This document shows positions 3,544 through 64,000 of a stretch of 64,000 nt of DNA, piece after piece. The translations under genes and the position numbers were made by a program. Below the pieces are notes generated by a model. That model did not search any database. It worked only from the letters and a program-made list of their open reading frames with translations, and had not been told where the DNA came from. The stretch's first letter is position 1. Each line of letters opens with the position of its first letter. Origin of the DNA: Myxococcota bacterium (GTDB lineage: Bacteria > Myxococcota_A > SURF-8); the NCBI GenBank assembly GCA_963674735.2, contig CAXXQS010000002.1, forward strand, positions 1,344,001 through 1,408,000. The letters run 5' to 3'.

Positions 3544-3549
3544 GGGCGC

Positions 3550-39494: not shown

Positions 39495-39514
39495 CGAGAA
39501 GGCCGTCGACGATT

Positions 39515-39532: not shown

Positions 39533-39594
39533 GATTGAAAGCGGAGAATTGCGAGTAGGCTGCCGTTTGTCGGTGGTGTCGAAGGGAGGAACGC

Positions 39595-40041: not shown

Positions 40042-40261
40042 AGCGCGGGTGGCCGGCTCGATTTCATCACCTTTTTGCGGATCCTATGCAATCATTGCGT
40101 AATTCCATTATAATGGGCGTGCATATTCGGCTCTCGGGTGTTTCCGGTCGCTAAACGGCTGGTTGGCTAACACACCTAAGTACCTGCTTTCTATTGGAAT
40201 CTTCCATTCCTCGCATTGTCTTATGAACCCCGAAACATTCCTTCCTTTTTCCCTAAAACGT

Positions 40262-40270
40262 TGGTATAAT
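40262..40270 (+). promoter_or_regulatory. extended -10 promoter of minor pilin operon
   Basis: TGGTATAAT 54 nt upstream of fimU start. Confidence 0.55.
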
Positions 40271-40323
40271 ACTTGCTTAGTTAAATCATGGGCGTGTAAT
40301 GTGCGCGCTCCAGAGGAGAAACG

Positions 40324-40851: not shown

Positions 40852-40859
40852 GGCGCTTA

Positions 40860-41387
40860 ATGAAAAGACTGACAGCCAATAGTTCCGAGGGAGGCTTCAC
40901 CATATTCGAGGTTTTGGTGAGTGTCGTTTTGCTGGGTATCGGCGTTGTGGCGTTGGCTTCCCTGCAGATCATCGGCATGCGCGGCAATGTCGCCGCTGAA
41001 GACCGCACCAAGGCGATGTCGGTGGCGACGGCCAAGCTGAGTGAAATCTCGAGTTATACGTTTTTTCAAAATATGAACACCGGCGAAGTAGTTGCCGATG
41101 CGCGGCTGACGGCTGCGGGGCGCATTTGCCAGGAAGTCAATCAGAGTTGCCTGACGCGCGAGGAAATCCGAACCCGTGCCGGCCTGGCTGAAGGTGCGGC
41201 GTTGGATGACGAGCAGTTTCGCTACACGCTCTGCTGGACCATCACCGACCAAGGTGATCTTACCCAGCCGGGATCGTTTAAGCAGATTACCATCGATGTT
41301 TCCTGGTCAGACCGGGCGTCGAAGGGCGGTGATGATGTCGTGTCGATCAGTTTGACCGGCTTGCCGTTAACCGCGAAATACATGTAG
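40860..41387 (+). CDS. pilV: minor pilin PilV
   Basis: GG|FTIFEVLVSVVLLGIG..ALASLQ, KQITIDVSW. Confidence 0.88.
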   Translation: MKRLTANSSEGGFTIFEVLVSVVLLGIGVVALASLQIIGMRGNVAAEDRTKAMSVATAKLSEISSYTFFQNMNTGEVVADARLTAAGRICQEVNQSCLTREEIRTRAGLAEGAALDDEQFRYTLCWTITDQGDLTQPGSFKQITIDVSWSDRASKGGDDVVSISLTGLPLTAKYM

Positions 41388-41395
41388 GGGGATGC

Positions 41396-42481: not shown

Positions 42482-42496
42482 CGGGAGGATGGACGT

Positions 42497-43021
42497 ATGA
42501 CGACTCAAATGAAAATCCAGTCTCCGGCCCGCTTGATTGAAAACACCCGAGGCTTGACCTTGCTGGTGTCTTTGATTCTTTTGGTTGTGATGTCGCTGGT
42601 GGGTGTGGTGGCCGTCAACATGGCGGTGCAGGAGGGCAAGATCGCCGTAAACTTTCAGGATTCTATGCGGGATCTGACGTTTGCGGAAGGGGGCATCGAG
42701 CGGGCTCGCCAAGTGATTATGGCGTCGCCCAACCCGGAACTGCCGGGCTACGATTGCACCTCGGACGACAATACGCACTACTTCCCCGATGGCGCTCAGG
42801 CGACTGAAACACGCGCGCGGTTTTGTATCGAGCTGATAACGGTCGACATCAAGGGTTTGAGTGAAGGCCGTGGTTCCGGGCAAGATCAAGGGGTGAAGAC
42901 CATCACCTACACGTATAAGGTCGATTCTGCCGTGGTGCGCGAAAATGAGGTGGATAGCACTCAGGAAATTGTGTTGCGGCAGATTCAGACTCTCGAACAA
43001 CAGACCCGTTTCTCCATTTAG
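42497..43021 (+). CDS. pilX: minor pilin PilX
   Basis: RG|LTLLVSLILL lacking Glu5, E.KIA.N, AEGGIE. Confidence 0.88.
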   Translation: MTTQMKIQSPARLIENTRGLTLLVSLILLVVMSLVGVVAVNMAVQEGKIAVNFQDSMRDLTFAEGGIERARQVIMASPNPELPGYDCTSDDNTHYFPDGAQATETRARFCIELITVDIKGLSEGRGSGQDQGVKTITYTYKVDSAVVRENEVDSTQEIVLRQIQTLEQQTRFSI

Positions 43022-43031
43022 GGAGATTACG

Positions 43032-47832: not shown

Positions 47833-50800
47833 ATGGTACGTTGGGCCGGAAATAACGGAATAATGGTCGGAATGACCTTGTTGCTCGTCGCCTTCTTGGT
47901 GATCGCCTGCGGAGGTGGATCGGAAAGCCAGCCGGGCGATGACAGCTGTGGACCTCACGGCGAGCGCGTGGGTGGTGTTTGCGTGTGCGACGACGGCTAT
48001 ATTGCCAGCGGTGACACCTGCATCCCTTTGCCCGACCAGGATATCGATATCGACCGGGAGCCGGATGATCCCACCGACGGCGATGTCCCGGGCGATGAAG
48101 ACAAGCCGGTGGATGCCGATGTCGATGGGGACGATCCCGACGGCGATGTCGATGGGGACGATCCCGACGGCGACCAGGATACCGTGCCGTGTAACTGCCC
48201 GGTAATCAACGGAACTTTCTGTGTGGATCCGCTGATCGTCAACCCGGCCGATTATCGCCAGGTGGAAATCAGCTCTGCCCAGCAACCCGGCTGCAAGCTG
48301 CATGTGAACGTGCGCACGTCGCGGCAGGTGGTGTTCGATGGTGAAATATCTTGTGATGCAAACGGCCACTCGCTTTTGGCGGCTTTGGGCTGTGATTTCA
48401 GTTATGATGGGGTGGCGGGGGCTATTTACGTATTCTGCGATCCCTATACCTACAGTTTTAAAAGTGAATTCTGTGCAACGGGCGATGCCGATCTCGATCC
48501 GGAAGCGGATACCGACGGCGACCTCGATCCCGATCTCGAACCGGATCTCGATCCCGATCTCGAACCGGAACCGGACAGCGACGGTGATACGGACGGTGAT
48601 ACGGACGGCGATACGGATGGGGACACGGATGGCGATACGGATGGGGATACGGACGGCGATCTCGAATTAGGGTGTGAATTCGGTGCGTTGGCTTGCCAGG
48701 GCAACATGGTTTATAGCTGCAATATGGACGGCCAGTGGGAGTTCAGCCTGGATTGTGCGCTTTCCAGCTTGATTTGCATGGACGGCTATTGCGTTCCGGA
48801 AATCGTGGACGGTGACGATACCGATAGCGATCAAGTCGATGGAGATGTGGAATCCGGTAAATGCTTGAACGATGCGGATTGTGCGGACTATCAGATCTGC
48901 CACCAGCAATCGGGCGAGTGTATTGATGGATGTCATCCCCAGGAACGTCCTTGTCCGAACGGTCAAACCTGTGAAACCACTGGCTTCTGCAGTGGCGACC
49001 CCACTTCCTGCACCACCGAAAATGAGGATGAGGTTTGCGGTTGGGGGCACTACTGCAGTGCGGATAGCAACACCTGCGTGCGCGAATGCTGGGCCTTGCA
49101 GCCTTGCTGGTCGCCCACGGTTTGTATTCTCGATAAAGGACGCTGCGGTCAGGCTTGTAGCAATCATGGCGACTGCCCCGAGTGCAACTACTGTCGAAAT
49201 GAGCAGGGCTGCTACATCGGCGAATGCTGCTTCGATTCCCAGTGCGAAAACGGGAGTTGCATCGACGCGTTCTGCGTCCCCGATTCGATCGACGGCGATG
49301 AGGATATCGAACCGGATGCCGAGATCGAAATCGAAGAAGAGCCGCTTCCTTGTAGTGTCGATAATCCTTGTGATTACGGGTACTATTGCTCGGGTGGCGA
49401 GTGTCGCCAAGACTGCGCGAGTGCTGAGGAATGCGAATTGGCCAACGGCGGCGGCAATTGGAACTGCAACGAGTTCGGCCAATGCGAATCCCTGCCTTGC
49501 ACGACGAATGACCATTGCCAGGATCACTATTTCTGTTTCGAAGGCAACTGCGTGCAGCAATGCCTCTATGATAATCAGTGTGCGCACTACGAGTTCTGCA
49601 CCGAGTTCGGCCAGTGCGTCACCAAGCCCGATTATGAAGAAGAGGTGGTGCCCGACTGCACCGAGGATGCCCACTGCGATGAATATCATTACTGCGGTCC
49701 GGAAAACACCTGCATTCAAGATTGCGCCACCGACCCCGAGTGTCAAACGCAGTATGGCGAGTTCTGGATCTGCGGTCCGCACGGCCATTGCATGGATAAC
49801 GCCAGCGATTACGCCGAGGATGAGTGCACCGAGGATGCGCATTGCGCGCCGGGTTATTACTGCCAGGATTACGAATGCAGGCAGGATTGCACCCCGCCGC
49901 GTTACGGCTGCGGTTACGACCAGATCTGCGACGAGTTCGGACGTTGCGTGGCTTGCGGCGGCGATACCGACTACGAGTGTTTCATGGGCAATCTGGAGTA
50001 TGATTACGACGAATTCGCCGGATCCTGCAACACCATTTACGATTGTCCCGAATGGTATTTCTGCAACAATAGCGGTATCTGCGAAACCGAATGTCTGCCC
50101 AACTGTCCGGAGGGCAGCACATGCAGCTTGGCTACACGCCGATGCGAGACCTATGAAATCATCGTGCCGGACTGCGACTATGACAGCGATTGCCCGGCCA
50201 CTGAAATCTGCAATGCCGATTTCAAATGCGTCGCGGGTGATTGTCAGACGGACAACGACTGTGGCGCGGGTGCCGTTTGTGTGGATCAGCGTCGTTGCCA
50301 AATCGTTGAAACCGAGTGCACCAGTGATTTCAACTGTCCTCTGGGCCTGTTCTGTGATGAAGCGGATCACGTTTGCCGGATTATGTGCAACAGCTACGTT
50401 CCGTGTGTCTCTGATATCTGCAGCGATCATGGAATGTGCGTGCCTGAAGGAACGACGCAGGTCGGGACGAGTTATTCCTGTTCGGGCGACACCCAATGTC
50501 CCAGCTATTCCCATTGCGAAGGTGGCTTCTGCATGACCGAATGCCGACCGCCCAATGTTCTGTGTCCCAACAATAACATCTGCACGACGCGCGGAGTCTG
50601 TGAGTTATTGACTACCGACGGTGATGTGGATCTCGATCCCGAACTCGAGCCGGAAATCGAAGAAGAGGCCGAGCCCGACTTCTTCATCATCCCCTGCGAA
50701 TCGGACAACGATTGTCCCTTCCATCTGTACTGCGACACCCAGGCTGCACCGAAGCGTTGTTGGGCGGAATGCCTGGGGAACCAGCATTGCCAGTCGGGTC

Positions 50801-51018
50801 AGGTGTGCAGCAATCGCGGGGCTTGCGTATCGGCGGATACCGAGCAGGATGAGAATCAAACCTATCCGACCTGTACCTACGATCAGGACTGCCCACAAGG
50901 GAGTTACTGTTGGTTGAATATCTGTCGCGCGGACTGCGCCGACGTCGAAAATCCCCCGATTTCGCTGCCTTGCGAACCGGGTCAAACCTGTTATGCGGAG
51001 CGTGGAAAATGCCTGTAA
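47833..51018 (+). CDS. Cys-rich repeat lipoprotein (~1060 aa) with EGF-like module and DGD linkers
   Basis: Lipobox VIAC; many C-x2-D-x2-C-x5-C-x4-6-C modules; ATG after AGAAGGA. Confidence 0.85.
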   Translation: MVRWAGNNGIMVGMTLLLVAFLVIACGGGSESQPGDDSCGPHGERVGGVCVCDDGYIASGDTCIPLPDQDIDIDREPDDPTDGDVPGDEDKPVDADVDGDDPDGDVDGDDPDGDQDTVPCNCPVINGTFCVDPLIVNPADYRQVEISSAQQPGCKLHVNVRTSRQVVFDGEISCDANGHSLLAALGCDFSYDGVAGAIYVFCDPYTYSFKSEFCATGDADLDPEADTDGDLDPDLEPDLDPDLEPEPDSDGDTDGDTDGDTDGDTDGDTDGDTDGDLELGCEFGALACQGNMVYSCNMDGQWEFSLDCALSSLICMDGYCVPEIVDGDDTDSDQVDGDVESGKCLNDADCADYQICHQQSGECIDGCHPQERPCPNGQTCETTGFCSGDPTSCTTENEDEVCGWGHYCSADSNTCVRECWALQPCWSPTVCILDKGRCGQACSNHGDCPECNYCRNEQGCYIGECCFDSQCENGSCIDAFCVPDSIDGDEDIEPDAEIEIEEEPLPCSVDNPCDYGYYCSGGECRQDCASAEECELANGGGNWNCNEFGQCESLPCTTNDHCQDHYFCFEGNCVQQCLYDNQCAHYEFCTEFGQCVTKPDYEEEVVPDCTEDAHCDEYHYCGPENTCIQDCATDPECQTQYGEFWICGPHGHCMDNASDYAEDECTEDAHCAPGYYCQDYECRQDCTPPRYGCGYDQICDEFGRCVACGGDTDYECFMGNLEYDYDEFAGSCNTIYDCPEWYFCNNSGICETECLPNCPEGSTCSLATRRCETYEIIVPDCDYDSDCPATEICNADFKCVAGDCQTDNDCGAGAVCVDQRRCQIVETECTSDFNCPLGLFCDEADHVCRIMCNSYVPCVSDICSDHGMCVPEGTTQVGTSYSCSGDTQCPSYSHCEGGFCMTECRPPNVLCPNNNICTTRGVCELLTTDGDVDLDPELEPEIEEEAEPDFFIIPCESDNDCPFHLYCDTQAAPKRCWAECLGNQHCQSGQVCSNRGACVSADTEQDENQTYPTCTYDQDCPQGSYCWLNICRADCADVENPPISLPCEPGQTCYAERGKCL
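48118..48171 (+). repeat. exact 27-bp tandem duplication (DVDGDDPDG x2)
   Basis: GATGTCGATGGGGACGATCCCGACGGC twice. Confidence 0.9.
48520..48660 (+). repeat. coding tandem repeats: 24-bp DLDPDLEP x2 and 12-bp DGDT x~7
   Basis: Read directly from sequence. Confidence 0.9.
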
Positions 51019-51122
51019 AGACAAGGCTGAACGAAACACCAAGCCGGGTTCTCTGCGACCCGGTGGGATACGATCGACAGACCCCGCGTCAAACCCGTTG
51101 TGCGGAACGGCTGGAGGCCACC

Positions 51123-54100
51123 ATGAAAGCCCCCGAGAGAGCACTTACCAGGAAGTCCCTCCTCTACGCCTTGGCGTTGATCGTCGGGTTCATGTTGCTG
51201 GCACCACAGCCGGAGGCGCAGGCTTATACGCTCTACAGTGCAAACAACTATTGGATCAGTGCCGCTCCAACCTTGGATTACAATAATAGTAATTCGACCT
51301 ACCTAGACTATTACGACCGAAACTACAACGCCTATGCCGGCGCTCGCATTGTCGCGCACACCTGCCACCAAAATGCAAAGGGGCGTGGTTTTCTTCGCTA
51401 TTATCGCCGTTATGGAAACAATACGGGGAGTTGGCAGTATAGCGATTCTTATGCCTGCCCTTCCAATGGTTCTTCGCCGCCAGGAACGACAGCCTCAAAC
51501 GGTGGGTATATTTATGAATTTTCCGATTACAACAACCTCGGCTTTGGCTCCTCGGCCACCAGCACGCAATATGCCGTTAAAATGCGGATTTACGCACGGA
51601 ATCCCAATACGGGCGGATATTATGATGGACCCCAAACTTACTACATTCGCCATCGCATCGATAACGGCTGGCCGGGTACGTCGAACCAGATCAACACTTT
51701 CTACTCCAAATGCACTGGTGCAGCCGCCAGCACAACGAATGTCGATTGTTCGCCCAATACTTGCGCGGGCAAAAACAGTTGGTTTGTCTGCAATAGTACG
51801 TGGAACTATTACGCGAGGGATTACGGTGACTATGCTTTCACATCGAGCACGGATTTCTCGCGCGGGCATCGGGTTACCAGCCTCAAAACCGGGCATGACA
51901 GCAGTTCTTATGCCAACTCCAACCCGACCACCGGTTGGCTGGCCGGTCTGGATATCACTAACCAAAATCTGGCTACCGGCCTTCGAACCATTTACATGCA
52001 TGGCTGGGGCTGGGATTCGTTTACGGCCGGCGGCGATGCGGATAAGCAGCGCCGCTTGGGTCGCCACCGCTATTACTACCGTTACGATAACAACATGCCG
52101 ACTCTGGCCCAGAAAACGGCAGGCGGTGGCCCGACGGCCGGGCGTTGGTATAACACCGGCGGGTGGGATATCAAGTGGGAGCTGGCGGATACGATTTCCA
52201 AGCCGCGCTGGGGGTTTGTAGACGGACCCACCGGGGATCTGACCTGCACGTCCTCCACGAGCTCCGGTTGTGGCGGCAATTCCGGTGCGTTCGAAATGGG
52301 GCGCACGCTCAATGAGGTTCGAAACGGCGCCTACGGCGGCATCACGCTCTATTATTCCGGCTGCGATTATTCCGGGCGGGGTTTTGGCACCCATTCAACC
52401 TATTGTCTGACCGATGGCACCTACAACGATCCCCGCAAATCGGCCACGTATTACTACGACCGAAATAACCCTTATGTCTCGGTTACCTGCAGCACGGGCA
52501 CCTGTCCGGCCAATGGCTGGGTCAATTCGGATTTCTCTGTATATTTCGATGGTAAGGATAATAGTTCGAGTACCAACGCCGGGCCGTGGAAGCTCTATTA
52601 CAGAACGCTGAGCGGCGAATATTCGAGCTTTACGGTAGACACCAGCCACTGTACCAGCACCCCTGTAACGGATTCGACCCCCTCCTATAATGAAACGGTT
52701 CGCTATACCTGGTCGGTTGGTTCAAGCTTCGGCGCGACGGGTAAAACCACCTGTGCCAGGATTTACGATGGCTCTTATGATGATTCAAATCATCAGGGCG
52801 CCCGCAGTGCCGCGAGCACCTGCAAGTTCTACAAGTATGATGGCCACAATCCCACGATCACGATGTCGAATTCCGGATCCTGCTGCGTGCCCAGCACAAG
52901 TAATTGTTACCTGGGCGATGACGGCGATAACATCACGCTGACCTTGCATGACGACGAAGAGCTCAAGCGGGTCGATTGCAACTGGACGACTTCCAGTTCA
53001 TCCTCCTATCCCAGCCAGGGCGGAGGCACGCGGGGTGCCAACTTGACGGGCCAGAATGCCACGTTCAACACCCAGTACGACGACGCCACCAGCACCGGCG
53101 AAGGCACGCGCTACTTGTGGTGCAAGGTTTGGGACACCACCGGTCGGTCCGCTACAGTCAGTGGCTACTTCAAGCTCGACCGCAATCCGCCGACGACCTC
53201 GGTGACCTCGAATTACCCTTATTACACGAATGCGAGCCAGAGTAACATCTCGTGGAAAAACGGCACTACGCCGACCTTCTACGGCAATGCCAGCAAGGGA
53301 ACCAACGATAGCGCTATTCAGAAATATCAGTGGGAACTCAATGAGACGACAAGCTCTGAACTAAGTTACACCGGCAGTTCGCCGATGGCCAGTTGGGCTA
53401 TTAGCCCCAGCCCGGGCAATCTGGATCGCCAGGGCCGCAACGATTTCAAATTCAAAACGCGCAATTCGGTGTGCACCGCGCACGAAAGCCATGCCTGGAG
53501 CGGCTGGTCCACCATCTATATCTGGCGCGATACGCTGGGTCCCGATAGACCGGGTCGACCCACAACTCCCGGCGGTCGCTACACCTCGGACAACACCCCC
53601 ACCTTTACCTTTACGCCGACTCAGGGTGATTGTGTGCCGAGTTCGGCCACCTCAACCAGTTGCGGCAGCTACACGCGAAACGCCAGCACCTACAGCTCGT
53701 TGTATTCGGGAATCAAAGATTCGAATATGTACCGCTATTATTTGAGGGAAACTACGGGCGGTTCAAACCTTTCCAACAACTATTTCACTTGCACGTCCAC
53801 CTCGTCCTGTTCGTTTACTCCCAGTTATACCCTGCAAACCGAACGAGACTATGTGTTGTTGCTGCGTGTGTATGACAAAGCCGGGAAATACGGGAACGCC
53901 GACAACACGACAGACGCCGTTACGGGTAGCAGCTCGACCTGGGTTTACTTTACCTACGATCACTCGGCTCCGAACACGCTTTCGGCCGTGCCAAGCGCCG
54001 TCGCGGATGCCAATGTGAGCACCAATCGCACCTATTATTCAAGTGGTACTTCGGTTAACGTGACCACCAAGGCGCGGGATGCCCTGGGTTGGGCACCGCT

Positions 54101-57100
54101 TTACGTGGCCATCTCGACCACTAAATATGGTACGACTGATTGCAATAATGCCGGTTTGGCCGGTGCCTGGCGGAGTATGGGCGGCAGCCTTAAAACGACC
54201 AGCGAGTTGACCTACACCTATTCCGTGAGCGATTTCAGCAGCTCGGGCACGAATTATTACGTCTATTTCAAAGACTCCGGCAACAACTGCGTGGCCTACA
54301 ACACCACCAGCGGGCCGGGCTACACCTTCAAAATCATCAAAGATACCGCGCCGCCCGCCAACCCGCAGCTACGCGTTTACTCCTCTACCAGCAGCAACAA
54401 CTGCAGCAATATCGGCTCCGGCACCGCCCGCACAACCTCGCGTGACGTGAAGCTCGTGGCCTGTGTCACCAATGCGTCCAGCGAGCCGAATCTGAAGGTC
54501 TTCGCCGAGGATAACTGGATCCGCAATTCCGGTTTCGACACCTCGCGGCCGAGCGATTACAACGACAACCACGGCACGACCACCGAGTCGGACCATTGGT
54601 ACAATCCTGGTAATCGTGGCCTTCGCAAGCAAACCAGCGTGTGGGGCACCAGCACCTGGGCCAATGAATACACGGCCAGCAGCACCGCTGCATATGAAAT
54701 TGGAATTTCTCAGTGCTTGTTTGGTTGTGGTGGAGCTGGCACCTATTGCCCGTCCGGCGACAACCTCAGTTGTCCGGTGAGCGGAACGCCGGGTAGCAAC
54801 CAGTTCCAGGACAAATGGACCCAAGCTCCCTCGGGTTGGTCTTGGCATACCAATTACCGCTACTATTGCAACGCTGTTGGAACAAGTGGCAACGACTATT
54901 ACACAAAGGTTTACGGGGCATCAGGACAAGGAACGGCCTTTTTCTTTGATTGTCCGTCTATTGGTTCAACCGGTTATCGGTCAAACAATGAGACCTTGAC
55001 CAACATAGGGAGCTATTTGGCATTCGCCTTCAAGGAAGATCAGGATCTTTCATCCGGCAAAGTAACGGTGGATAATTTCGAATTCTACCGCTACCCGACC
55101 TCCTCCACCCCCAACGACAGCAACACATCACTCAACGATCTGAACGAGTGGATGGGTTGGAAGAGTTGGTCGGGTACCTCGAGCGGCTCGTTCAACTGGA
55201 AGCTGCCCGAAGGCGATGGCCCGCACAAGGTCTACGCTTGGTTCAAGGATCAAACCGGCAACATCACCACCTCGGCCGCCACCGCCACGATCATTCTCGA
55301 TCGCCGCGCGCCCTGGGGCGGCCTGGTGGTCGCCGCGCCGACCTCCACCGAAACGATCGATGGGCGGCGCTATACTTCGGCACCCCGGCCGCAGCTGCGC
55401 TTGCGCGCCTACGACGACTGGACCACCGGATCCGGCATGCGGGCCGCGCTGTCGCTCAACAACTCGACTTACGGAAGCTATTTTGGCATCTCCCACGGCG
55501 ATCAGACCCTCGATGTATCGAGCACGTATTGGCCGGGGCTTAGCGGCGCGGTCAACGCCACCACCGGCAACACAGTTTACGCTCGCTTCAAGGACGGCGG
55601 CGACAACACCACGTCACACACGATTGCCTCGGCGATCTATCTGGATCGTAAAAAGCCGGAACTGGCGGCTTCCCTGGCAACCGCCAATCAGGGTTACACC
55701 AACGAAAACGTGACGGTACGGATCACCACCCTGAAGGACAACTGGCCCTACATGGATGGTAGCAACAAAAAGCTGCGCGTCTGCATCAAGCACAAAAACA
55801 GCACGGGCGATACGGCCACTCCGACCTACGACGATCCCAGCGCCACCGGAAACTGCTGGCAGAACATCAGCGTCAGCGGCACCAGCTATTATTCCGGTAC
55901 CGCCGATCTGGCCTACACGCTTACCGGCAACAAGAACGAAAACAAAACGGTCTACGTCTGGGCCGTCGACGGTAGCGCGAAACGCTACGGCATCGATCCG
56001 TTGAACATCGCCGGACCGGTGACGATGACCACCTTCCTGGACGGCACGCCGCCGACTTGTGCGAGTATCGTCGCCTACGGCAAAGATCGCAACAACGCCG
56101 ATGATTCCAGGTTCTTCAATGACGGCACCGTCAAGGTCGTGGTGAAGGCCACCGATGTGGCGGGCGTCTCGGGTGTGCGTCTCTCCAATTCGACGAGCTT
56201 CTCGGGCGGTTGGACTTCCATGGCGTCCTGTACAGGTGGCTATTGCGCCACCGTGGCCACTTTCGACATCAACGAAGCCGCCACTACTCCCAAGGTTTAC
56301 GCTCAGTTCCAGGATACCCTCGGCAACTATACCACCAGCGGTTTCTGCAGCGATACGATTACCTACGACATCACCGGCCCGCAGAAGGCCGCCGTGCAGA
56401 TCGTGGGTAACGTGCCCGGCGACATCAACAAGACCAACACGCCGAACGTCAAGCTGAAAGTCGGCGCGTATGTCGGCACGGCTACGCCGGGCGCCGTCTC
56501 GGGTATTACGGAAGGCTGGACCAACACCACAGCCAATCCCCTGTATTATCGGGTGTGTCGCAATCTAACCGGTAACACCAACTCCGACTGCTGGCCGAAC
56601 GCCTCGGGTTGGCTGGCCTTGCCGTCCAGCGGCGATGTGCCGACCGGGACGACCACATTCAACCTCGGCGAATGTAGTGTAGGTCTGGCAAGTTGCACCA
56701 AATCGGTCTACCTGTGGCTGTCCGATCAGGGCGGCAACGATTCGGCCCCCAATCAGAACGGCGCCTATCCGGTCCGTACGGATACGGTCACGCTCGATAG
56801 CAATAAGCCGGTCTGCACGGCGTCGGTGACCTCGGCCGACTTCAGTTACACCAGCGACCACTTCACCGACGACCCGATCTTGAACGTCAGCATCGATCGG
56901 GAAGGTAATACCGATATCAGTCATTACTGCCTGTGTACGGGCGACACCAACGCCTTGCCGTCGTCGGCCGGTAGTACAAGCGATTATTGCGCGGACAATA
57001 CCAGCAATGGGCGTTGCACCGGTTGGACCTCGATTCCGGTCAGCAACACGACCCAATGGACGCTTTACAGTGGTGCCGCCGCATCAGCGCCCCAGGGCGA

Positions 57101-60100
57101 CAAGCACATGTGGATTTTCTGTCGCGACAGTTCCTACAACATCAGTTGCGATCCGAAAACCGAAACCTGTGCGGCGCAAGACTACGCCAAGATCGATACC
57201 AAGGCTCCGGCGATTCCGGCGCAGAACATTCATGTGAAAGACAGCTCGCACCCGCTGCAGACGAACCAGAAGAACGCGAAGATCACTTGGGGTAGCTCCT
57301 ACGATACCTACGGTGAATGTAGCGGTAGCGGCACCTGTGGCGGTGGCACCTGCATCAGCCAATTCTGTTCACCGGCGGTCGCCAGTGGATTGGTGGGCTA
57401 TCAGGCTCGTTACAAGCTCGATACGGCTTCAACCTGGAAACCGACTGAAAACGTTTTCAATCTGACCGCCTACCCTTATCCGCAGGATATGATTTGGGAT
57501 CCGGTTTATAACTTCGAGCCGGACGGCCACTGGCAGATCCAGGTCAAAGCGGTCGACAAGCTGTATCAATCTTCCGAAGTGGACCACGCCAATCCGGCCG
57601 GTTCTACCTGGCAGCAGGTTTCCGTCCTGGTCGACACGACGGGTCCGCAACCTTACAACCCCGTGGATGGCGCGGCGATCACGCTTTACGAACCGAACTC
57701 AAGCTGTGGGACGAGTTTCTACACGCACGCGAGCAAAAAAGTCACGGCTTCCAATGCGATCGATATCGCCATTAACGCCAAAGACGCCTTGGATCCGGAT
57801 GGCCAGGGAACGAATTGGCGGGAGGCGACCGCCACCGTTATGGGATTCTCCGTGGTCGCGGCCACGGCGGATTGCCCGCAAAACACGGCGGTTGATTATC
57901 GTTACATCTTCGAAGCGGATGAATGCTTCCAGGGCGTGGATGGGGGTGGCCAGCAGTGGAGCAATGGCTTCCCGATCGTAAGTGGCACCCCGGCAACCAC
58001 GGTCGAAAAGAAGATCTGCGGGCATTTCCGCGATTGGATCAACAACTACTCGCCGGCGGTTCGCAATGATGCGGATTTCGTGGCTCTCGTAACTTACGAC
58101 CGCGAAGGTCCCTATGCCTCCGGTCTGCCCAGCACCGACGAGGATGTGCACAATACGCCCAAGCCCAACTGGACTTGGACGGCCTCGACCGGTGACAAGG
58201 CGCGTGCTCTGGCGAGCACGGGCGACAGCTGTCCGGGCGCTCCGTATCGTCTGCGTTACTGGATGGGACCGGTGGGCGGCGAAACGGCCGGACCGTATTA
58301 TTCCAAATCCTTGACCACCAACCAGATGACGAGCATCGATTATAACACGGGTCAGGAACTGATCCCCGGTGTGTGGAACGCCGTCGTGGAAGTATACGAT
58401 GCGAAATGCTACAAGACCGACTCGACTGCGGGCGAAACCGAGTACGATACTTCTGTGTCTTCGGATAACAAGGTTTCAATCTTAAGCCCGGCCGATAACA
58501 GCAACAAGTTTACCAACAAAGCGGCGGTGGATCTGTCGATTTCGACGGTCGATACCGATATCGAGAAATACGTCACCTGGAACTGCAACAACGGGGAGTC
58601 GACCCCGCTTCTGGGCACTTGGACCCCCTACAGCAGCGATGGTTCCATCGGTGGCTGGACACTCGATGTCAGCGGCATCTCCACGCCGAAGGGAACCGTC
58701 AAGGTTTGTTATCGCTTCCTCGATGCGGCGGGCAACATCACCTGCGATCCCGTTGCCAGTCCTTCTTGCGATCCGTCTCACGGCCTCGATTTCGCGCCGC
58801 AGATGGATACGATCATTTACGACAAGTGGGCCCCGACCAACGACGGCGATGCTATCGCCGTGGCGTCTTTAAGTGACGGACCCGACCCCTTCTACACGAA
58901 TCAGTCTTCGGTTGCGGTAACGCTCTCCGCCAAGGACGGCAATTCGGATGAGTGGACGTCCCTGCGCTATGCGATCGCCAATGCCGCCGACGGCAGCAGC
59001 CCGGCGAATCCCGCTTCCAGTGTTGGTAGTTGGCAGGCCTTTACGTCGCCGCTGGATATCGCCAGTCATTCGCTGGGTGTTTCCGGCGACGCTTGCGATG
59101 CCAACGGGCAGCGCGATGTCTATGTTTGGTTTGCCGATCAGGGTGCCTTGATTCCGGGCGACGGACCGACCGAATACAACCGGACACCAAACGGCTCGCC
59201 TTACAAAGACTCCATTTTCTTCGATAACTGCATGCCGCAGCCGGTGGATACCTCGGTGCCGCACATCGTCAAAGTCGGCGGGATCGACCCGAACGCCACC
59301 GATGATGCGACGCCCGAATGGACCTGGCCGGCTTTCGCCGATCCGGGTTCGGCGAGTTCTACCGGCGCGGGCTTGTGCACCGCTGCGCTGTGCAATACGG
59401 CCAGCATCAAGGGTACCTACCAGATCTGCTGGAGCAATTACGAAAGCAGTTGCGCATGGTCGACGGATGCACCGTATTTCCGCGATACCAACAGCTACAC
59501 CCACACGAGCGCCCTGAATCCGGGCGTGTGGTATTTCCATGTTCGCGCCTATGACCGCGCCGGGAATGTGTCCGACACCTTGGTCGGTTCCGCCACGGTC
59601 GTGGATGTGCAAAAACCGAGCAAGCCAATCGTTTCCGCGTTTGACGACGATCCGCTTAACCAGCATCTTGCCTCGGCGCGTCTCGTGATCGATGCCGCAG
59701 ATGGCAACGACGGCAGTGCGGTGGATTACGCCATCAAGGTGGCCAATGTTTCCAATGGCGCTGGTGGAACGATGTGGGTCGGTGACAGCGGTGTTTTGGA
59801 AACCGATCCCGTCTGGCAGAGCCGTAACACCTGGAACGGCGATGGCAGCGGTGTGATCATCAAGGAACTGGAAGACAGCAAGCTCTACATCTTCACCTTG
59901 ATTGCGAGCTTCGATCAGGGCGGCGAGTATCCGTCCGATGACTTCGCCTCCGTGCGGGTGAACGACCGTACGCCGATTCTTCCCCCGACGCCCACGGCTT
60001 CGGCGGATGTCGGAAACAATCAGGTTGATCTCTCCGTCAGCTACAAAGATCCTACCAGTACGCGCTTCCCGGCGGCTGTTTGGGATGCGAATGCGGAACG

Positions 60101-63100
60101 CTATAACGCGCTGCGTCAAGAGATGCTTACCACTAGTGGCGATTTCGGTGCCGGTGACGACACCTTCCCGCTACGCAATGGTATTGCTTACATTCCGCAC
60201 AGCGTTTCCGGTTGGGGTGAAGATACCTTCCTGTCGATTGAGCCATACAAGATGGCCTACTTCACACCGAACTGGGAGCATCGTGACGGTGACGGCTACA
60301 ATACGGCGGGTCATCCGTCCGTGTTGCCGGGTATCGGTTACGGCATCGAGTTCGATCCCGTCCGCAACCTGATTTACTCGGTTTCCTCGTCCAGTCCGCA
60401 GTTGTATGCTTACACGTATAATTCGTTGACGAGCAGCTGGAGTGGCACCACGATTACCGGTTCTATTCCAACTTGTATCGATCTGGCCTACGACGGGAAC
60501 TTCCTCTATTGTATGGGGAACCACAACGGCACCATTTCACGCTTCAAGCTTTCCGGTGCCGCCGGATCGCAAACGATGGCGGCTCAGGGGACATTCAGTC
60601 CCGGCACCGCTCTGGCCTACGACGGTTTGGCTGTTGCCAACGGCTTGCTCTATGTCGGTGGAAGAGGCGACACGGATCGCACGGTCACGGTGTATCGTAC
60701 CGGCGACTGGTCGGATGATTCGACCGATCTGCCGACAAGCGCTGCCAGCTTCTCCGTGTCATCCGATGCCAATGCCAATATCGGCACCTTGTTGAGTGAT
60801 GGCCGCTTCCTTTACACGCACGCCGTCGAACTCAGCGGTGGGGTGCCGACGGATTCTCACAATCGGGTATACGGGCACGCGCTGCTCAACCAGATGGCCT
60901 TTTTCCAGGCTAATCCGAATGAGGACTCGCTCGACGCCGCGCGGGCGGAATACGCTCCCTTGGGTGGTGTAATCGATCGCTTCGATGACAGCGATTTCAC
61001 CGATCTCTGGAATTTGTCGAGTGGTAACTTCAGCCAGGGCTCCGGGTTTGTGGCCGCAACAGGTACGACCAACATGTTGCTTGCCAAAACCACGCCTCCA
61101 ACGCGTTACTTTGCCATTGAAGCCGATGTAATGGATACCGCTTCCATCGCCGATGGCGAGGTGGGTCTGGTTTACTCGGCCGCCAATACGAACAATCGTT
61201 TCCAGTGCGGCTTCAACGTCAATCAAGACGTCAGCCCGATCACGTATAGTGCACGTATTTACCGACGCAGTACGGCCAACGGAACGGTCGAGGTCGGCAG
61301 TCGTGACGACCTGACATTCGCCAAGGGTGCCTGGTATCATCTCAAAGTGGTGGTAACAGACCGTGATCATACTTGTTATATCAATGGCGTGAAGGTTGCG
61401 TCTCTCCAGGGTGATTCAACCTTGCCCGGCGGCGCGCCGCTTTCAGTCGGTGTCTTCGCCGATCAAGACGGGGCGCGTTTCAACAACTTCCGTCTGACCC
61501 CGCTACAGGGTGATGTGTCCGGTTCCAACTGGACGTATGCTTCGACGGATGCCCAGGATATTACGCCGCCTACCGATATCACCAGTGCCACCTCCACCCA
61601 TTCTCCGGCGATCAACGTTTGGAGTAACGTGGATGAGATTTCGGTGAACTGGGATGAGCCCGATTCACAGGGAACGGCTTACAGCTTTACGTCGTCCGCT
61701 CTGGATGGTGCTCATAACTTCTCGAATGGTTTCGCCAACGGCACCTTCGATGGTGGCGATGGCGCAAAGGCCTATAGCTGGTATCGCAACACCGCTTTGA
61801 CTTCGACGCACGACACAAGCTGCACCAATGCCGGTTGTTCGCGGCGCGTGGTGGGCACTGAAACTTTCAGCGGTATTTCGATGGCGGGTAAAACCATCTC
61901 CGGCTATGGGCGGTATATCCGCTCCCGTGCCGATGGAACCGCATATATCGGTTTAATCCAGCGTGTGCCGGTGATGACCAAAGACAGCAGCGATTTCGCT
62001 TTCGAGTTTGATTATTACTGCGAGTCGGGCACGATCAATCTGCAGAGTGGCAAAAATGGATGGCGAATGCGCTTTATCCGGGAAGATGGCAATGCCACCC
62101 CATACGATTCTACAGCTGTTGCCTATCTGTCGAATGGAACGACAGCGATCAAGGATCTGAACCAGTTTGAATGTGTGGCCAACGAAACCGGCCATGTGGT
62201 TGCCAAGGTTTCAACTCCCAGTAGCATGGCGAATCATTACTATCGTCTACAAGTTTATGACTGGGCTTTGACTTCCGGCAATTACCCCACCGATCCCTAC
62301 GTTTTCCAGGGGATCGTTCTCGACAACTTCACACTGCGTGAGGTGGATTCTGCGACCATCGAAACGCTGATGGCCGAGTACCTCGTGACGGCCACCTGGA
62401 GCGATGGCGGCAGCAGCCAAGTTTACCAATACACCCGGCCAAACAACACGGCCGGTCGCGATTTGGTGATTCCGCCCAACGGCGATCAGATCGCCAGTGG
62501 CGAGTGGGTGGTAACGGTTGCGGGTAAAGATGCAGCCGGAAACTGGAATGAAAACGACTACGAACTGAATAAATTCCTGGTCGATAACACCAAACCGGCC
62601 ACTCCGGAGATCAGTTGTAATGTCGATAAGGCGGACTGGTCGAATGCGACGTCCGCGACTTGTAGCTGGGATAAGACCACTGGGCCGAGTCCGGGAACTT
62701 ACTACACCTGTTACAGCAACTCTTCCAATCCGGCGGATTGCAATACCTGGTCCTCGCAGTCGGATACCAGTGCCAGTGTTGCCGTTGCGTTGACTGAAGG
62801 TATCGAGGGTAAATCTTATCTGCATGTCTATGCCATGGATACCGGTTCTCCGGATCCCGGCGTCGATCCGCCGGGCATCGATACCTACGAGTTCTGGATC
62901 GATCAGACTAAACCCACCGCTCCGACGGTGTCGTGTTCGTGTCCCGACTCGGTATCGATCGGTGACGGCGCGGACCCGGACGCTGTCGACGAGTGGTATT
63001 GCATGAACGATGACAAGAACATCAGTTGTGCTTGGAATGATCTTCCGCAGCCGCCAACCTCGCCGCGCAAATTCGGATCGTGTCTGTATCAGGTGCGCAC

Positions 63101-64000
63101 GGAGGACTTGGGTGCCGGTCAGGAAATGGAAGATTTCGATTGTAACGCGGCGGTGAAGTGTACACTCAATTACGTTCTCTCCACCCCGGCGAAAGCGTTG
63201 GGAGATACGCTTGTCAATGGTTCCGGTACCTGGTGTTTCTATGCGGGCAATTCCGATACCGGTGGTTTCTCAGACGTGTCTTCCTATAAGTTCCATATCG
63301 ATATTACTCCGCCCGAGCGGCCGAGTAACGAATGGGCTCCGTGGGTCATCAACGGCGAAGGCGCCAAGGTCGATTACACGGCCGAAGAGAGACCGACCTG
63401 GGTATGGCAGCCTGCAATCGATCAGCATTCCGGTCTTGCCGGTGGTACGGGTCGTTACGACATCATGTGGTCGCTTGATGGCTGCGGGAACTACTCGGCC
63501 CAGAATTCCGCTGACGCGGCTACCGAAACCTACACACATACCAGTGACTTGACCGTCAATGTGAAGTATTGGGGTTGGGTGCGGGCGTTTGATTTGGTTG
63601 ACAACTATGCCGATTCGGAATGTGGCGAAATCTTCGTGGTTGGTATGGAAGATCCCGCACCTCCGGCCGTTTCGGCGCTGATTGATCCGGTTCTGCAATC
63701 CGAAGCTGGTAAGATCAAGCTGGTTATCGATAACACGGGTAATGTCCAACCCAACATCATGTTTGCGGTGATCGAAAACAAGGCGACCGGTGGAACTTAT
63801 CTCCGTGGGGATGGGACGCTCGGTGCGGCCTATGTCGATCCGAAAACCGGCGATCCGGCGCTTATCAACGAGATCTGGCGCACTTACGACGCGAGTGGTT
63901 CGGCGGTGCATTGGAACGGTACGAATGGTCTCATCATAGACGGAATCGATTTCGGTAGCGGAGAAGTGCCGCTTTACGATGGGACGGAATTCGAGTTCCA
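51123..64000 (+). CDS. giant secreted Ig/Fn3-like repeat adhesin, >4290 aa, 3' end outside window
   Basis: GGAGG SD, ATG 51123, signal peptide MKAPERALTRKSLLYALALIVGFMLLAPQPEAQA; supplied track has no closed ORF in this frame; frame still reads GEVPLYDGTEFEF at window end. Confidence 0.9.
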   Translation, partial: MKAPERALTRKSLLYALALIVGFMLLAPQPEAQAYTLYSANNYWISAAPTLDYNNSNSTYLDYYDRNYNAYAGARIVAHTCHQNAKGRGFLRYYRRYGNNTGSWQYSDSYACPSNGSSPPGTTASNGGYIYEFSDYNNLGFGSSATSTQYAVKMRIYARNPNTGGYYDGPQTYYIRHRIDNGWPGTSNQINTFYSKCTGAAASTTNVDCSPNTCAGKNSWFVCNSTWNYYARDYGDYAFTSSTDFSRGHRVTSLKTGHDSSSYANSNPTTGWLAGLDITNQNLATGLRTIYMHGWGWDSFTAGGDADKQRRLGRHRYYYRYDNNMPTLAQKTAGGGPTAGRWYNTGGWDIKWELADTISKPRWGFVDGPTGDLTCTSSTSSGCGGNSGAFEMGRTLNEVRNGAYGGITLYYSGCDYSGRGFGTHSTYCLTDGTYNDPRKSATYYYDRNNPYVSVTCSTGTCPANGWVNSDFSVYFDGKDNSSSTNAGPWKLYYRTLSGEYSSFTVDTSHCTSTPVTDSTPSYNETVRYTWSVGSSFGATGKTTCARIYDGSYDDSNHQGARSAASTCKFYKYDGHNPTITMSNSGSCCVPSTSNCYLGDDGDNITLTLHDDEELKRVDCNWTTSSSSSYPSQGGGTRGANLTGQNATFNTQYDDATSTGEGTRYLWCKVWDTTGRSATVSGYFKLDRNPPTTSVTSNYPYYTNASQSNISWKNGTTPTFYGNASKGTNDSAIQKYQWELNETTSSELSYTGSSPMASWAISPSPGNLDRQGRNDFKFKTRNSVCTAHESHAWSGWSTIYIWRDTLGPDRPGRPTTPGGRYTSDNTPTFTFTPTQGDCVPSSATSTSCGSYTRNASTYSSLYSGIKDSNMYRYYLRETTGGSNLSNNYFTCTSTSSCSFTPSYTLQTERDYVLLLRVYDKAGKYGNADNTTDAVTGSSSTWVYFTYDHSAPNTLSAVPSAVADANVSTNRTYYSSGTSVNVTTKARDALGWAPLYVAISTTKYGTTDCNNAGLAGAWRSMGGSLKTTSELTYTYSVSDFSSSGTNYYVYFKDSGNNCVAYNTTSGPGYTFKIIKDTAPPANPQLRVYSSTSSNNCSNIGSGTARTTSRDVKLVACVTNASSEPNLKVFAEDNWIRNSGFDTSRPSDYNDNHGTTTESDHWYNPGNRGLRKQTSVWGTSTWANEYTASSTAAYEIGISQCLFGCGGAGTYCPSGDNLSCPVSGTPGSNQFQDKWTQAPSGWSWHTNYRYYCNAVGTSGNDYYTKVYGASGQGTAFFFDCPSIGSTGYRSNNETLTNIGSYLAFAFKEDQDLSSGKVTVDNFEFYRYPTSSTPNDSNTSLNDLNEWMGWKSWSGTSSGSFNWKLPEGDGPHKVYAWFKDQTGNITTSAATATIILDRRAPWGGLVVAAPTSTETIDGRRYTSAPRPQLRLRAYDDWTTGSGMRAALSLNNSTYGSYFGISHGDQTLDVSSTYWPGLSGAVNATTGNTVYARFKDGGDNTTSHTIASAIYLDRKKPELAASLATANQGYTNENVTVRITTLKDNWPYMDGSNKKLRVCIKHKNSTGDTATPTYDDPSATGNCWQNISVSGTSYYSGTADLAYTLTGNKNENKTVYVWAVDGSAKRYGIDPLNIAGPVTMTTFLDGTPPTCASIVAYGKDRNNADDSRFFNDGTVKVVVKATDVAGVSGVRLSNSTSFSGGWTSMASCTGGYCATVATFDINEAATTPKVYAQFQDTLGNYTTSGFCSDTITYDITGPQKAAVQIVGNVPGDINKTNTPNVKLKVGAYVGTATPGAVSGITEGWTNTTANPLYYRVCRNLTGNTNSDCWPNASGWLALPSSGDVPTGTTTFNLGECSVGLASCTKSVYLWLSDQGGNDSAPNQNGAYPVRTDTVTLDSNKPVCTASVTSADFSYTSDHFTDDPILNVSIDREGNTDISHYCLCTGDTNALPSSAGSTSDYCADNTSNGRCTGWTSIPVSNTTQWTLYSGAAASAPQGDKHMWIFCRDSSYNISCDPKTETCAAQDYAKIDTKAPAIPAQNIHVKDSSHPLQTNQKNAKITWGSSYDTYGECSGSGTCGGGTCISQFCSPAVASGLVGYQARYKLDTASTWKPTENVFNLTAYPYPQDMIWDPVYNFEPDGHWQIQVKAVDKLYQSSEVDHANPAGSTWQQVSVLVDTTGPQPYNPVDGAAITLYEPNSSCGTSFYTHASKKVTASNAIDIAINAKDALDPDGQGTNWREATATVMGFSVVAATADCPQNTAVDYRYIFEADECFQGVDGGGQQWSNGFPIVSGTPATTVEKKICGHFRDWINNYSPAVRNDADFVALVTYDREGPYASGLPSTDEDVHNTPKPNWTWTASTGDKARALASTGDSCPGAPYRLRYWMGPVGGETAGPYYSKSLTTNQMTSIDYNTGQELIPGVWNAVVEVYDAKCYKTDSTAGETEYDTSVSSDNKVSILSPADNSNKFTNKAAVDLSISTVDTDIEKYVTWNCNNGESTPLLGTWTPYSSDGSIGGWTLDVSGISTPKGTVKVCYRFLDAAGNITCDPVASPSCDPSHGLDFAPQMDTIIYDKWAPTNDGDAIAVASLSDGPDPFYTNQSSVAVTLSAKDGNSDEWTSLRYAIANAADGSSPANPASSVGSWQAFTSPLDIASHSLGVSGDACDANGQRDVYVWFADQGALIPGDGPTEYNRTPNGSPYKDSIFFDNCMPQPVDTSVPHIVKVGGIDPNATDDATPEWTWPAFADPGSASSTGAGLCTAALCNTASIKGTYQICWSNYESSCAWSTDAPYFRDTNSYTHTSALNPGVWYFHVRAYDRAGNVSDTLVGSATVVDVQKPSKPIVSAFDDDPLNQHLASARLVIDAADGNDGSAVDYAIKVANVSNGAGGTMWVGDSGVLETDPVWQSRNTWNGDGSGVIIKELEDSKLYIFTLIASFDQGGEYPSDDFASVRVNDRTPILPPTPTASADVGNNQVDLSVSYKDPTSTRFPAAVWDANAERYNALRQEMLTTSGDFGAGDDTFPLRNGIAYIPHSVSGWGEDTFLSIEPYKMAYFTPNWEHRDGDGYNTAGHPSVLPGIGYGIEFDPVRNLIYSVSSSSPQLYAYTYNSLTSSWSGTTITGSIPTCIDLAYDGNFLYCMGNHNGTISRFKLSGAAGSQTMAAQGTFSPGTALAYDGLAVANGLLYVGGRGDTDRTVTVYRTGDWSDDSTDLPTSAASFSVSSDANANIGTLLSDGRFLYTHAVELSGGVPTDSHNRVYGHALLNQMAFFQANPNEDSLDAARAEYAPLGGVIDRFDDSDFTDLWNLSSGNFSQGSGFVAATGTTNMLLAKTTPPTRYFAIEADVMDTASIADGEVGLVYSAANTNNRFQCGFNVNQDVSPITYSARIYRRSTANGTVEVGSRDDLTFAKGAWYHLKVVVTDRDHTCYINGVKVASLQGDSTLPGGAPLSVGVFADQDGARFNNFRLTPLQGDVSGSNWTYASTDAQDITPPTDITSATSTHSPAINVWSNVDEISVNWDEPDSQGTAYSFTSSALDGAHNFSNGFANGTFDGGDGAKAYSWYRNTALTSTHDTSCTNAGCSRRVVGTETFSGISMAGKTISGYGRYIRSRADGTAYIGLIQRVPVMTKDSSDFAFEFDYYCESGTINLQSGKNGWRMRFIREDGNATPYDSTAVAYLSNGTTAIKDLNQFECVANETGHVVAKVSTPSSMANHYYRLQVYDWALTSGNYPTDPYVFQGIVLDNFTLREVDSATIETLMAEYLVTATWSDGGSSQVYQYTRPNNTAGRDLVIPPNGDQIASGEWVVTVAGKDAAGNWNENDYELNKFLVDNTKPATPEISCNVDKADWSNATSATCSWDKTTGPSPGTYYTCYSNSSNPADCNTWSSQSDTSASVAVALTEGIEGKSYLHVYAMDTGSPDPGVDPPGIDTYEFWIDQTKPTAPTVSCSCPDSVSIGDGADPDAVDEWYCMNDDKNISCAWNDLPQPPTSPRKFGSCLYQVRTEDLGAGQEMEDFDCNAAVKCTLNYVLSTPAKALGDTLVNGSGTWCFYAGNSDTGGFSDVSSYKFHIDITPPERPSNEWAPWVINGEGAKVDYTAEERPTWVWQPAIDQHSGLAGGTGRYDIMWSLDGCGNYSAQNSADAATETYTHTSDLTVNVKYWGWVRAFDLVDNYADSECGEIFVVGMEDPAPPAVSALIDPVLQSEAGKIKLVIDNTGNVQPNIMFAVIENKATGGTYLRGDGTLGAAYVDPKTGDPALINEIWRTYDASGSAVHWNGTNGLIIDGIDFGSGEVPLYDGTEFEF

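Follow-up and report, generated by a model that had tools for sequence, protein, structure and literature searches.

What is encoded by a reading frame that enters a stretch of bacterial DNA and runs off its end without meeting a stop codon, and what would its product do downstream of a set of type IV pilus genes? These questions are raised by a 64,000-nucleotide stretch from a Myxococcota bacterium (GTDB lineage Bacteria; Myxococcota_A; SURF-8; assembly GCA_963674735.2, contig CAXXQS010000002.1, positions 1,344,001 to 1,408,000 of the forward strand), which we refer to as the window. The frame is a real gene of 10,500 codons that stands last after a pilus tip set and is conserved within its class, and we consider it rather probable that its product, the giant protein, is a Sec-exported, glycan-binding surface fibre of megadalton size made together with that set.

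Coordinates are window positions throughout; beyond 64,000 the frame was followed on the contig and positions are given as window equivalents. From the ATG at 51123-51125 the translation gives 4,292 residues (aa) to base 63998 without a stop, which agrees with a preliminary description, made from the letters of the window, of an open frame encoding a secreted repeat protein of more than 4290 aa. That size stands as a lower bound, and the true length on the contig is 10,500 aa: the stop codon is reached at 82,625, so that the gene measures 31.5 kb and window positions 51123-64000 hold its 5' 41%. It is the longest open frame in the 5.26-Mb genome, of which it takes 0.6%; the runner-up has 4,611 codons. 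The mature protein has 10,466 aa, a mass of 1,135 kDa and an isoelectric point of 4.3. The frame had been reported as absent from the open reading frame (ORF) track, and it was missing because ORFs running off the window are unlisted by default; with open ends allowed it is listed as 50910..63998 (+), open at the 3' end. As had also been stated, the + strand ORFs listed beyond 51123 lie in the other two frames, which arithmetic on the ORF list bears out for all nine of at least 100 aa. An annotation blind spot is thereby corrected, in which the largest gene of a genome becomes invisible where the ORF track drops frames that leave the window.

The coding character of the frame is apparent over its full length. 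The G+C content of third codon positions (GC3) is 0.63-0.72 in each block of 1,500 codons and is similar in the genes for PilB, PilY1 and the upstream lipoprotein. A 68.8-kb contig from two runs of a single sample, which may be where this DNA came from, covers the in-window part with 0 differences. A second sample from that study supplies 30 contigs, each ≥99% identical, which together reach 29 of 30 bins and show one substitution and zero indels. Three runs contain the stretch, none of them listed as RNA. There is no in-frame stop within the 10,500 codons and no sign of an assembly chimera, and no full-length match to a characterised protein was found. An apparent joint from 53100 to 61579 was discounted, as it rests on 20-nt sides of an unrelated contig. 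Five relatives carry collinear orthologues of 8,933-11,165 aa, namely G004 (9,705 aa; 31% identity across 10,821 alignment columns), G003 (10,104 aa; 31% across 7,748 columns plus N-terminal pieces), G008 (8,933 aa; 27% across 7,538 columns), G001 (10,492 aa) and G006 (11,165 aa), and in a six-way alignment the relatives are 25.6-35.2% identical to the protein of the window.

Within the class the giant gene is conserved. A profile of aa 6401-7400 matches nine of ten genomes, its own included; the missing genome (G005) is 79% complete, and contig ends cut the frame in three others (G002, G007 and G009). A sample of 401 genomes of the phylum, 391 of them outside the class, yielded only two further, partial matches, each to a domain of ~340 aa in an ORF of ~900 aa (E 1.7e-32 in G379 and 2.2e-22 in G089). 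Four loci came out of a scan of genomes of named species, under the titles 'MAG: Myxococcota bacterium' or 'Myxococcales bacterium'. Among proteins of 3,025-9,625 aa in a set of 5.8 billion, aa 6401-7400 found one contig-truncated relative of 7,853 aa (41% identical), and the same segment matched 0 of 7,998 proteins of 1,751-5,000 aa; aa 1-3000 matched 0 of 819 scored candidates of 3,666-11,666 aa, and a search of the PDB by sequence with aa 1-4999 gave zero matches. Identity to the relatives drops from the predicted cytoplasmic to the predicted exposed parts of the locus, from 76-91% for PilB through PilC (64-79%), pilin (38-48%), PilY1 (32-46%) and lipoprotein (27-34%) to 26-35% for the giant protein. 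Within the latter the N-terminal 2,800 aa are ~22% identical, and aa 6400-7400 and the C-terminus 38-46%.

The giant protein begins with MKAPERALTRKSLLYALALIVGFMLLAPQPEAQA, followed by YT, which we read by eye, without a predictor, as a Sec signal peptide (...LLAPQPEAQA before YT). The preliminary description had reached the same reading and had placed the ATG behind a GGAGG, as we find (Table 1). In a scan of 19-residue segments the signal peptide is the only hydrophobic stretch in the entire protein, and the N-termini of the orthologues likewise show a hydrophobic stretch and then a motif of small residues. The giant protein has no match to the type IV pilin signal family PF07963 (N_methyl), whereas three neighbouring genes have one.

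Most of the chain consists of modules of a single type. About 25 junctions with an aromatic or aliphatic residue before D-x-x-x-P had been noted earlier and interpreted as borders of tandem Ig/Fn3-like domains; the exact figure for [FYWILVMK]-D-x-x-x-P in the window part is 27, where 500 shuffled versions averaged 4.8 ± 2.2 and reached at most 12, and when 114 modules are aligned, only the columns of this D and P are conserved to at least 90%. Profiles that were each started from a single module and refined by iteration over the six orthologues themselves delineate modules of 90-125 aa, of which 46 (profile D) or 47 (profile B) lie between aa 552 and ~10,112, with 18 in the window part. The modules match one another at only 20-35% identity and, as had been said, are not near-identical copies. 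For aa 2705-2832, an alignment of 114 sister modules gave a model with a mean predicted local distance difference test score (pLDDT) of 81.5 and a predicted template modelling score of 0.75, and this model has an Fn3 fold: the top 50 matches among 48,161 PDB representatives are nearly all Fn3 domains, at Z 6.8-8.9. The best is titin A84-A86 (Z 8.9, root mean square deviation (rmsd) 3.1 Å, 99 residues), and others are the Fn3 domain of ChiA74 chitinase (Z 8.0), PorU (Z 7.8) and further titin Fn3 domains (Z 7.7-8.0); the top Foldseek match is a BIg domain of SiiE (E 7.5e-4). Values of Z 7-8 are commonly reached as the best in this structural search, and the argument for Fn3 therefore rests on the uniformity of the match list. 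By family profile, Big_13 (PF19077) scores 20.4 bits in the window part against a cut-off of 27, and fn3 (PF00041) is unlisted; outside the window one module, at aa 6005-6092, scores 30.0 against 27, and Big_13 is found in two of the six orthologue N-termini. Elsewhere in this genome the module profile matches just two ORFs, of 1,939 and 3,757 aa, both with an FGE-sulfatase domain. The Ig/Fn3 interpretation is thus supported for the modules, and the chain does not consist of these alone: it also includes the N-terminal ~550 aa, three lectin-type super-modules and the FGE-fold end.

The pairs of cysteines that had been remarked on in the modules are likewise present: the window part has 95 Cys, 43 of them in columns that are Cys in at least four of the six orthologues and 18 in columns that are Cys in all six, often as close pairs, and such conserved pairs would fit disulfides in an exported protein. 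The first ~550 aa are matched by none of five internal module profiles. A phmmer search with aa 35-1100, the first 1,066 mature residues, against 1.84 billion representatives found one match (E 2e-6, ~80 aa), an N-terminal profile of the six orthologues had zero matches in the PDB, and an atlas look-up of aa 35-560 gave a recognition value of 1657, under the 2300 mark, with weak Big_3_2/Big_13 leads only. The giant protein is in this respect a rich source of uncharted sequence.

Three copies of a ~1,000-aa super-module, 25-31% identical, occupy aa ~2706-3830, 4066-5020 and 6209-7390, and each carries a PF06439 (DUF1080) domain. Against a family cut-off of 26.8 bits, copy 1 scores 23.9, which is under it, and copy 2 (aa 4548-4704) scores 38.3; copy 3 matches the CBM66 of levanase in the PDB at E 4e-9 by sequence and 2.5e-9 by profile. 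The model of the in-window copy superposes on the CBM66 of Bacillus subtilis levanase SacC (4azz, 4b1l, 4b1m) over 157 of 165 residues with an rmsd of 2.4 Å (Z 19.2), at 12% identity and a model pLDDT of ~57-78. A CBM66-like fold of the concanavalin type, common to levanase and the copies in the giant protein, is thus present; it differs from that of levanase in being one module in a chain that appears to be non-enzymatic. The beta-sandwich that follows (aa ~3500-3740), modelled as all-beta at pLDDT 50-69, is 27% identical to aa 7100-7310 (E 1e-18 to 2e-20). For the propeller-like segment before the CBM66-like domain, the sole family match is to Kelch, at E 0.04. We suggest from these models that the super-modules bind glycan. 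A further domain of ~340 aa without a family, at aa ~6500-6845 and so outside the window, is absent from the in-window super-module 1, although the G001 and G003 orthologues carry it in theirs; the partial matches in G379 and G089 are to this domain.

The last ~400 aa (aa ~10,097-10,500) match FGE-sulfatase PF03781 in two stretches (E 3.4e-30, 106 bits against 23.3). The preliminary description had looked to the full contig for a C-terminal anchor, and what the contig encodes there is this domain, with no hydrophobic segment, ending ...GFRCAAPSAMTAE. The nearest solved sequences are PorK/GldK (E 8e-9), and NCBIfam GldK matches at E 1.5e-15, yet with 57 bits against an equivalog cut-off of 350. 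Where the Streptomyces FGE (2q17) reads GGSYLCHDSYCNRYRV, the giant protein has GGSFASSWRY---TRV, with ASSWRY---TR opposite LCHDSYCNRYR. The cysteines of the Streptomyces stretch are those that we take to be the catalytic pair, and none of the six orthologues has a Cys in the stretch aligned to them; by this alignment the C-terminal FGE-fold domain is without the FGE cysteines. PorK/GldK and GldJ, proteins of type IX secretion and gliding, share the FGE-sulfatase fold with the end of the giant protein, and PorK/GldK also has no cysteines where FGE has its pair; PorK/GldK are, however, free-standing Bacteroidota lipoproteins of ~450 aa, whereas the domain considered here is the end of a 10,500-aa chain. 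Co-folding of aa 10,084-10,500 with the N-terminal 101 aa of the upstream lipoprotein (six alignment rows each) returned a score of 0.00, which is no answer and no evidence either way.

A match to TvpA (2y3c, E 3e-4) suggested that the C-terminal domain might be the target of a diversity-generating retroelement. This idea was dropped, there being no template repeat and no reverse transcriptase nearby, and the last 600 nt of the gene have only chance matches of 17-33 nt elsewhere in the genome. Two RVT_1 matches on another contig (C1:524366-524965 in a 966-aa frame and C1:600352-600729 in one of 798 aa) are unrelated to the giant gene. The genome as a whole has a strong expansion of FGE-sulfatase domains: 33 matches score above the cut-off, of which the giant protein accounts for two and ORFs of 1,500-3,800 aa for several.

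The homologues and their neighbourhoods place the giant gene last in a predicted type IV pilus operon. In the window the type IVa pilus genes upstream of it span 35398..47171 (+). All six complete loci, counting this one, have PilB upstream and the order PilY1, Cys-rich protein, giant on a single strand, and all six have a small secreted protein or a pilin-like ORF between PilY1 and the Cys-rich lipoprotein. Past the giant the genes encode an S41 protease, TauE and RsmB, and these had no match in the stretches fetched from five relatives. A strong terminator-like hairpin lies 27 nt past the giant stop codon (11-bp stem, 7 GC pairs, T7 tail; L004:653-678); since the earliest start codon of the following ORF (S41 peptidase, PDZ) falls within it, that gene probably starts further down. 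A scan found no comparable + strand hairpin between the lipoprotein and giant genes, and a promoter scan gave one sigma-70-like site against 7.1 expected, which is uninformative for this phylum. The giant gene may well be co-transcribed with the pilus tip genes, to judge from this layout. A metagenome scan with a PilY1 alignment returned three loci, of which L040 alone extends past PilY1, into a small ORF and a Cys-rich lipoprotein, and ends before any giant gene.

The 172-aa protein encoded after PilY1 has homologues in the matching position in G003 (29%, E 3e-10) and G004 (35%, E 3e-15). An ORF of similar size with a middle that looks similar by eye is present in G006 (E 0.11) and on contig L040 (no tblastn match at E 10), and in G008 an ORF resembling a PilX-type minor pilin takes its place. 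According to the part of the source drawn on here, TfcP of M. xanthus, a small extra protein of a PilY1 cluster, aids calcium binding by PilY1 (PMC8833165). The lipoprotein encoded directly before the giant has long D-rich linkers (DGDTDGDT...), many copies of a short Cys-rich repeat and a conserved N-terminal domain of ~100 aa with six Cys positions, four of them invariant in a six-row alignment; it has no Pfam or NCBIfam family beyond low-complexity matches. Its start cannot be the GTG at 47566, since the region there is shared with the 172-aa ORF.

Table 1. Positions of the giant gene, its parts and the pilus genes upstream of it
Feature	Position in window	Strand	Basis or remark
GGAGG ribosome-binding site	51113..51117	+	5 nt ahead of ATG; direct reading
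Start codon and Sec-type signal peptide (aa 1-34, ...PEAQA before YT)	51123..51224	+	Read by eye; sole hydrophobic 19-mer
Orphan N-terminal region, aa 35 to ~551, Y/N/W/G-rich with Cys	51225..52775	+	No internal module profile matches
~16 Fn3-type beta-sandwich modules, aa ~552-2950, interrupted by insert aa ~1057-1276	52776..59972	+	Profiles, junction motif, module model
Beta-propeller-like segment of super-module 1, aa ~2990-3280	60090..60962	+	Weak; all-beta in low-confidence model
CBM66/DUF1080-like concanavalin-fold lectin domain (predicted), aa ~3283-3460	60969..61502	+	Z 19.2 to levanase CBM66
Beta-sandwich with conserved NGF-x-NG-x-F-(D/E)-GG motif, aa ~3500-3740	61620..62342	+	Invariant Cys pairs, six orthologues
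More Fn3-type modules, aa ~3744-4292	62352..64000	+	Profiles, contig translation; gene continues to window-equivalent 82,625
PilB	35398-37101	+	Pfam
PilT	37152-38240	+	Pfam
PilC	38274-39494	+	Pfam
Pilin	39595-40041	+	Pfam
Minor pilins	40848-41387 and 41396-42481 (PilW-like)	+	Pfam
PilY1, 1,408 aa	42945-47171	+	Pfam; sole PilY1 match in genome
Small secreted protein, 172 aa, Sec-type signal, between PilY1 and lipoprotein genes	47187-47705	+	Homologues in relatives
Cys-rich acidic lipoprotein, ~1,060 aa, lipobox ...LVIAC before GGG, directly before giant	47833..51018 (start approximate)	+	Orthologues in matching position

Our preferred reading, which we hold on balance to be the probable one, is that Sec exports the giant protein and that it would form a long, acidic, disulfide-braced surface fibre in which ~46 Fn3-type modules serve as spacers and three diverged lectin super-modules of ~1,000 aa, each combining a CBM66-like domain with another beta-sandwich, bind polysaccharide. 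The fast-evolving orphan N-terminus would be the distal end, lying beyond the outer membrane, and the best-conserved part, a putatively non-catalytic C-terminal FGE-fold domain of the PorK/GldK kind, would dock to the cell envelope or to a partner. The giant gene would be the last cistron of a type IVa pilus tip operon (minor pilins, PilY1, small secreted protein, Cys-rich lipoprotein, giant), and its product would therefore be made with the pilus adhesion set; the two together would serve attachment to surfaces, matrix or other cells. What links the giant to the pilus here is gene order. The disulfide-stabilised adhesin or surface fibre proposed in the preliminary description is in this way supported, the words adhesin and surface fibre being drawn from the architecture.

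Several points weigh against such a fibre. Pfam and NCBIfam scans of the last 2,000 aa found no type IX secretion system C-terminal domain and no MYXO-CTERM, no hydrophobic 19-mer exists outside the signal peptide, C-terminus included, and the RTX pattern GG-x-G-x-D-x-U-x and HemolysinCabind have no match in the protein; surface exposure is assumed, because no known signal for crossing the outer membrane or anchoring in it was found. No Pfam family passes its cut-off in the window part, aa 2705-2832 is the only module modelled with confidence, and the model of a 1,200-aa tile (aa 2561-3760) is poor (pLDDT 54). PilT and PilC are adjacent in five of the six loci, the exception being G006, whose fetched stretch showed neither, and the conserved order among ten related species may partly reflect inheritance.

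Known giant proteins resemble this one in part. SiiE of Salmonella and the RTX adhesins of the LapA/MpIBP type are also megadalton, acidic, linear chains of beta-sandwiches with ligand-binding modules. Adhesins of the SiiE/LapA type leave the cell by type I secretion, carry RTX repeats at the C-terminus and lack a Sec signal. The giant protein, in contrast, has a Sec-type signal and no RTX nonapeptide, HemolysinCabind or adjacent type I secretion genes, its neighbours being pilus and housekeeping genes, and PDB sequence searches detected no homology to such adhesins. With titin it shares the Fn3 fold and a long tandem array, but titin is eukaryotic and intracellular and has no sequence relation to it, so that the likeness is one of fold only. 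Export routes (type I, V or IX secretion) partly define giant repeat adhesins, and the giant family is without signals of these routes. It is a class-restricted variant of giant repeat adhesins, set apart by its unusual domains, by the lack of a known export signal and by a conserved place at the end of a type IV pilus tip operon.

The closest parallel in gene position comes from Omnitrophota, in the portion of West-Roberts et al. (bioRxiv 10.1101/2023.11.21.568195) drawn on here. There, too, giant genes lie downstream of a conserved locus of the GspE/GspF/pilin type (gspD/E/F plus pilin-formation genes), and their products likewise have domains that suggest attachment and carbohydrate binding, with most of their length free of Pfam annotation. 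Those giants are larger, some exceeding the ~40,000 aa of titin, and they have other domain sets; in the same portion, Myxococcota are merely listed among the phyla rich in very large genes. The locus described here differs in that it belongs to another phylum and holds the full type IVa pilus set, PilT and PilY1 included; the likeness drawn is one of gene position. A word search of the literature, main texts without supplements, turned up no description of a giant gene within an operon of PilY1, and the consulted portion of a survey of myxobacterial PilY1 (PMC13190605) mentions no giant neighbour, the word 'giant' occurring 0 times; the pairing of a giant gene with a pilus tip operon appears not to have been described in this phylum.

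If the fibre is more than a neighbour of the pilus, it could be cargo or an accessory of the type IVa pilus machine, an extension of our preferred reading that we regard as possible but rather unlikely. The giant protein would then be driven out by way of the PilQ secretin, or else the PilY1/minor-pilin complex would keep it at the tip, perhaps through the FGE-fold end or the lipoprotein, and the pilus would deploy and retract a megadalton lectin line. The terminal place of the giant gene in a PilY1/minor-pilin operon in all six complete loci, with a downstream flank that is not common to them, speaks for this extension, as do the position of the only PilY1 match in the genome upstream of it and the want of any other export signal among those searched for. 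Type IVb pilus operons encode the exoproteins TcpF and CofJ, which leave the cell through the corresponding pilus machines. Giant genes of Omnitrophota are, in the portion of the preprint used, 'generally preceded by' type II secretion/pilin-formation loci (bioRxiv 10.1101/2023.11.21.568195). All this is gene order, however, which is the sole evidence; the secretin genes, three in the genome, are located elsewhere, the signal peptide is of the Sec type and not a prepilin one, as the missing N_methyl match indicates, and no paper found describes a partner of PilY1 of this kind. The boldest form of the idea is that a 1.1-MDa Fn3 fibre studded with lectin modules, its dead FGE-fold end serving as the docking part, is exported or carried by the pilus machine of the class, and that the same logic, in which a pilus or type II secretion-like machine is combined with an FGE-fold protein and a giant fibre, arose independently in Omnitrophota; it rests on gene order and on the Omnitrophota parallel, and we think it unlikely. 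Were the link to the pilus functional, the giant protein would be a new accessory of the type IV pilus tip, a much-studied adhesion machine, and a second independent case, beside Omnitrophota, of giant fibres behind pilus-like secretion loci; there might then be a general, undescribed way to deploy megadalton adhesins across the Gram-negative envelope.

It is quite improbable, in our estimation, that the protein instead stays in the periplasm as a scaffold which builds or measures an envelope structure, its FGE-fold end resembling the PorK/GldK ring. PorK/GldK being nearest to the C-terminal domain would suit such a role, and so would the lack of a recognised outer-membrane export signal and the envelope lipoprotein gene directly upstream. 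An Fn3 module is ~4 nm long, however, and a chain of ~46 is several times longer than the periplasm is wide. Moreover, the protein diverges very fast, most of all at the N-terminus, as exposed proteins do more typically than internal scaffolds, and lectin modules like CBM66 suggest a polysaccharide outside the cell.

A surface fibre with lectin modules would bind polysaccharide; a giant glycan-degrading enzyme, which we hold to be very improbable, would digest it, whether from prey or from matrix, its propeller-plus-sandwich units being diverged hydrolases of the GH32, GH43 or sialidase kind. The CBM66 of B. subtilis levanase is indeed attached to an enzyme, the catalytic part of levanase being GH32, and residues ~459-901 of the tile, the propeller-like segment together with the CBM66-like domain, align with GH43 enzymes, GH32 levanase or invertase and sialidases at Z 13-17, as they also do in Foldseek, whose list for the tile model (TM 0.1-0.15) was used as a hint only. 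These alignments have an rmsd of ~20 Å, however, their Z values are carried by the CBM66-like domain, and the propeller part has a pLDDT mostly below 70. Pfam and NCBIfam scans of the whole giant protein found no catalytic family, with zero GH families at E 0.1 to 0.01, and the equivalent segment differs among the super-modules, super-module 1 of G001 and G003 having the other domain type as well.

That the frame is a chance opening, a pseudogene or an assembly chimera, for which it might be said that ORF tracks and gene callers can miss a giant frame and that the window's own protein is unlisted in the search of 5.8 billion proteins, is refuted by 31.5 kb free of stops, coding-type GC3 over the full length, collinear orthologues and concordant second-sample contigs, and we give it virtually no credence.

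At the far end of the window from the giant gene, 5267-8974 (+) encodes an ORF of 1,235 aa with ASH, Cep192_D4, HYDIN-like Ig and PKD matches, families best known from proteins of eukaryotic cilia and centrosomes.

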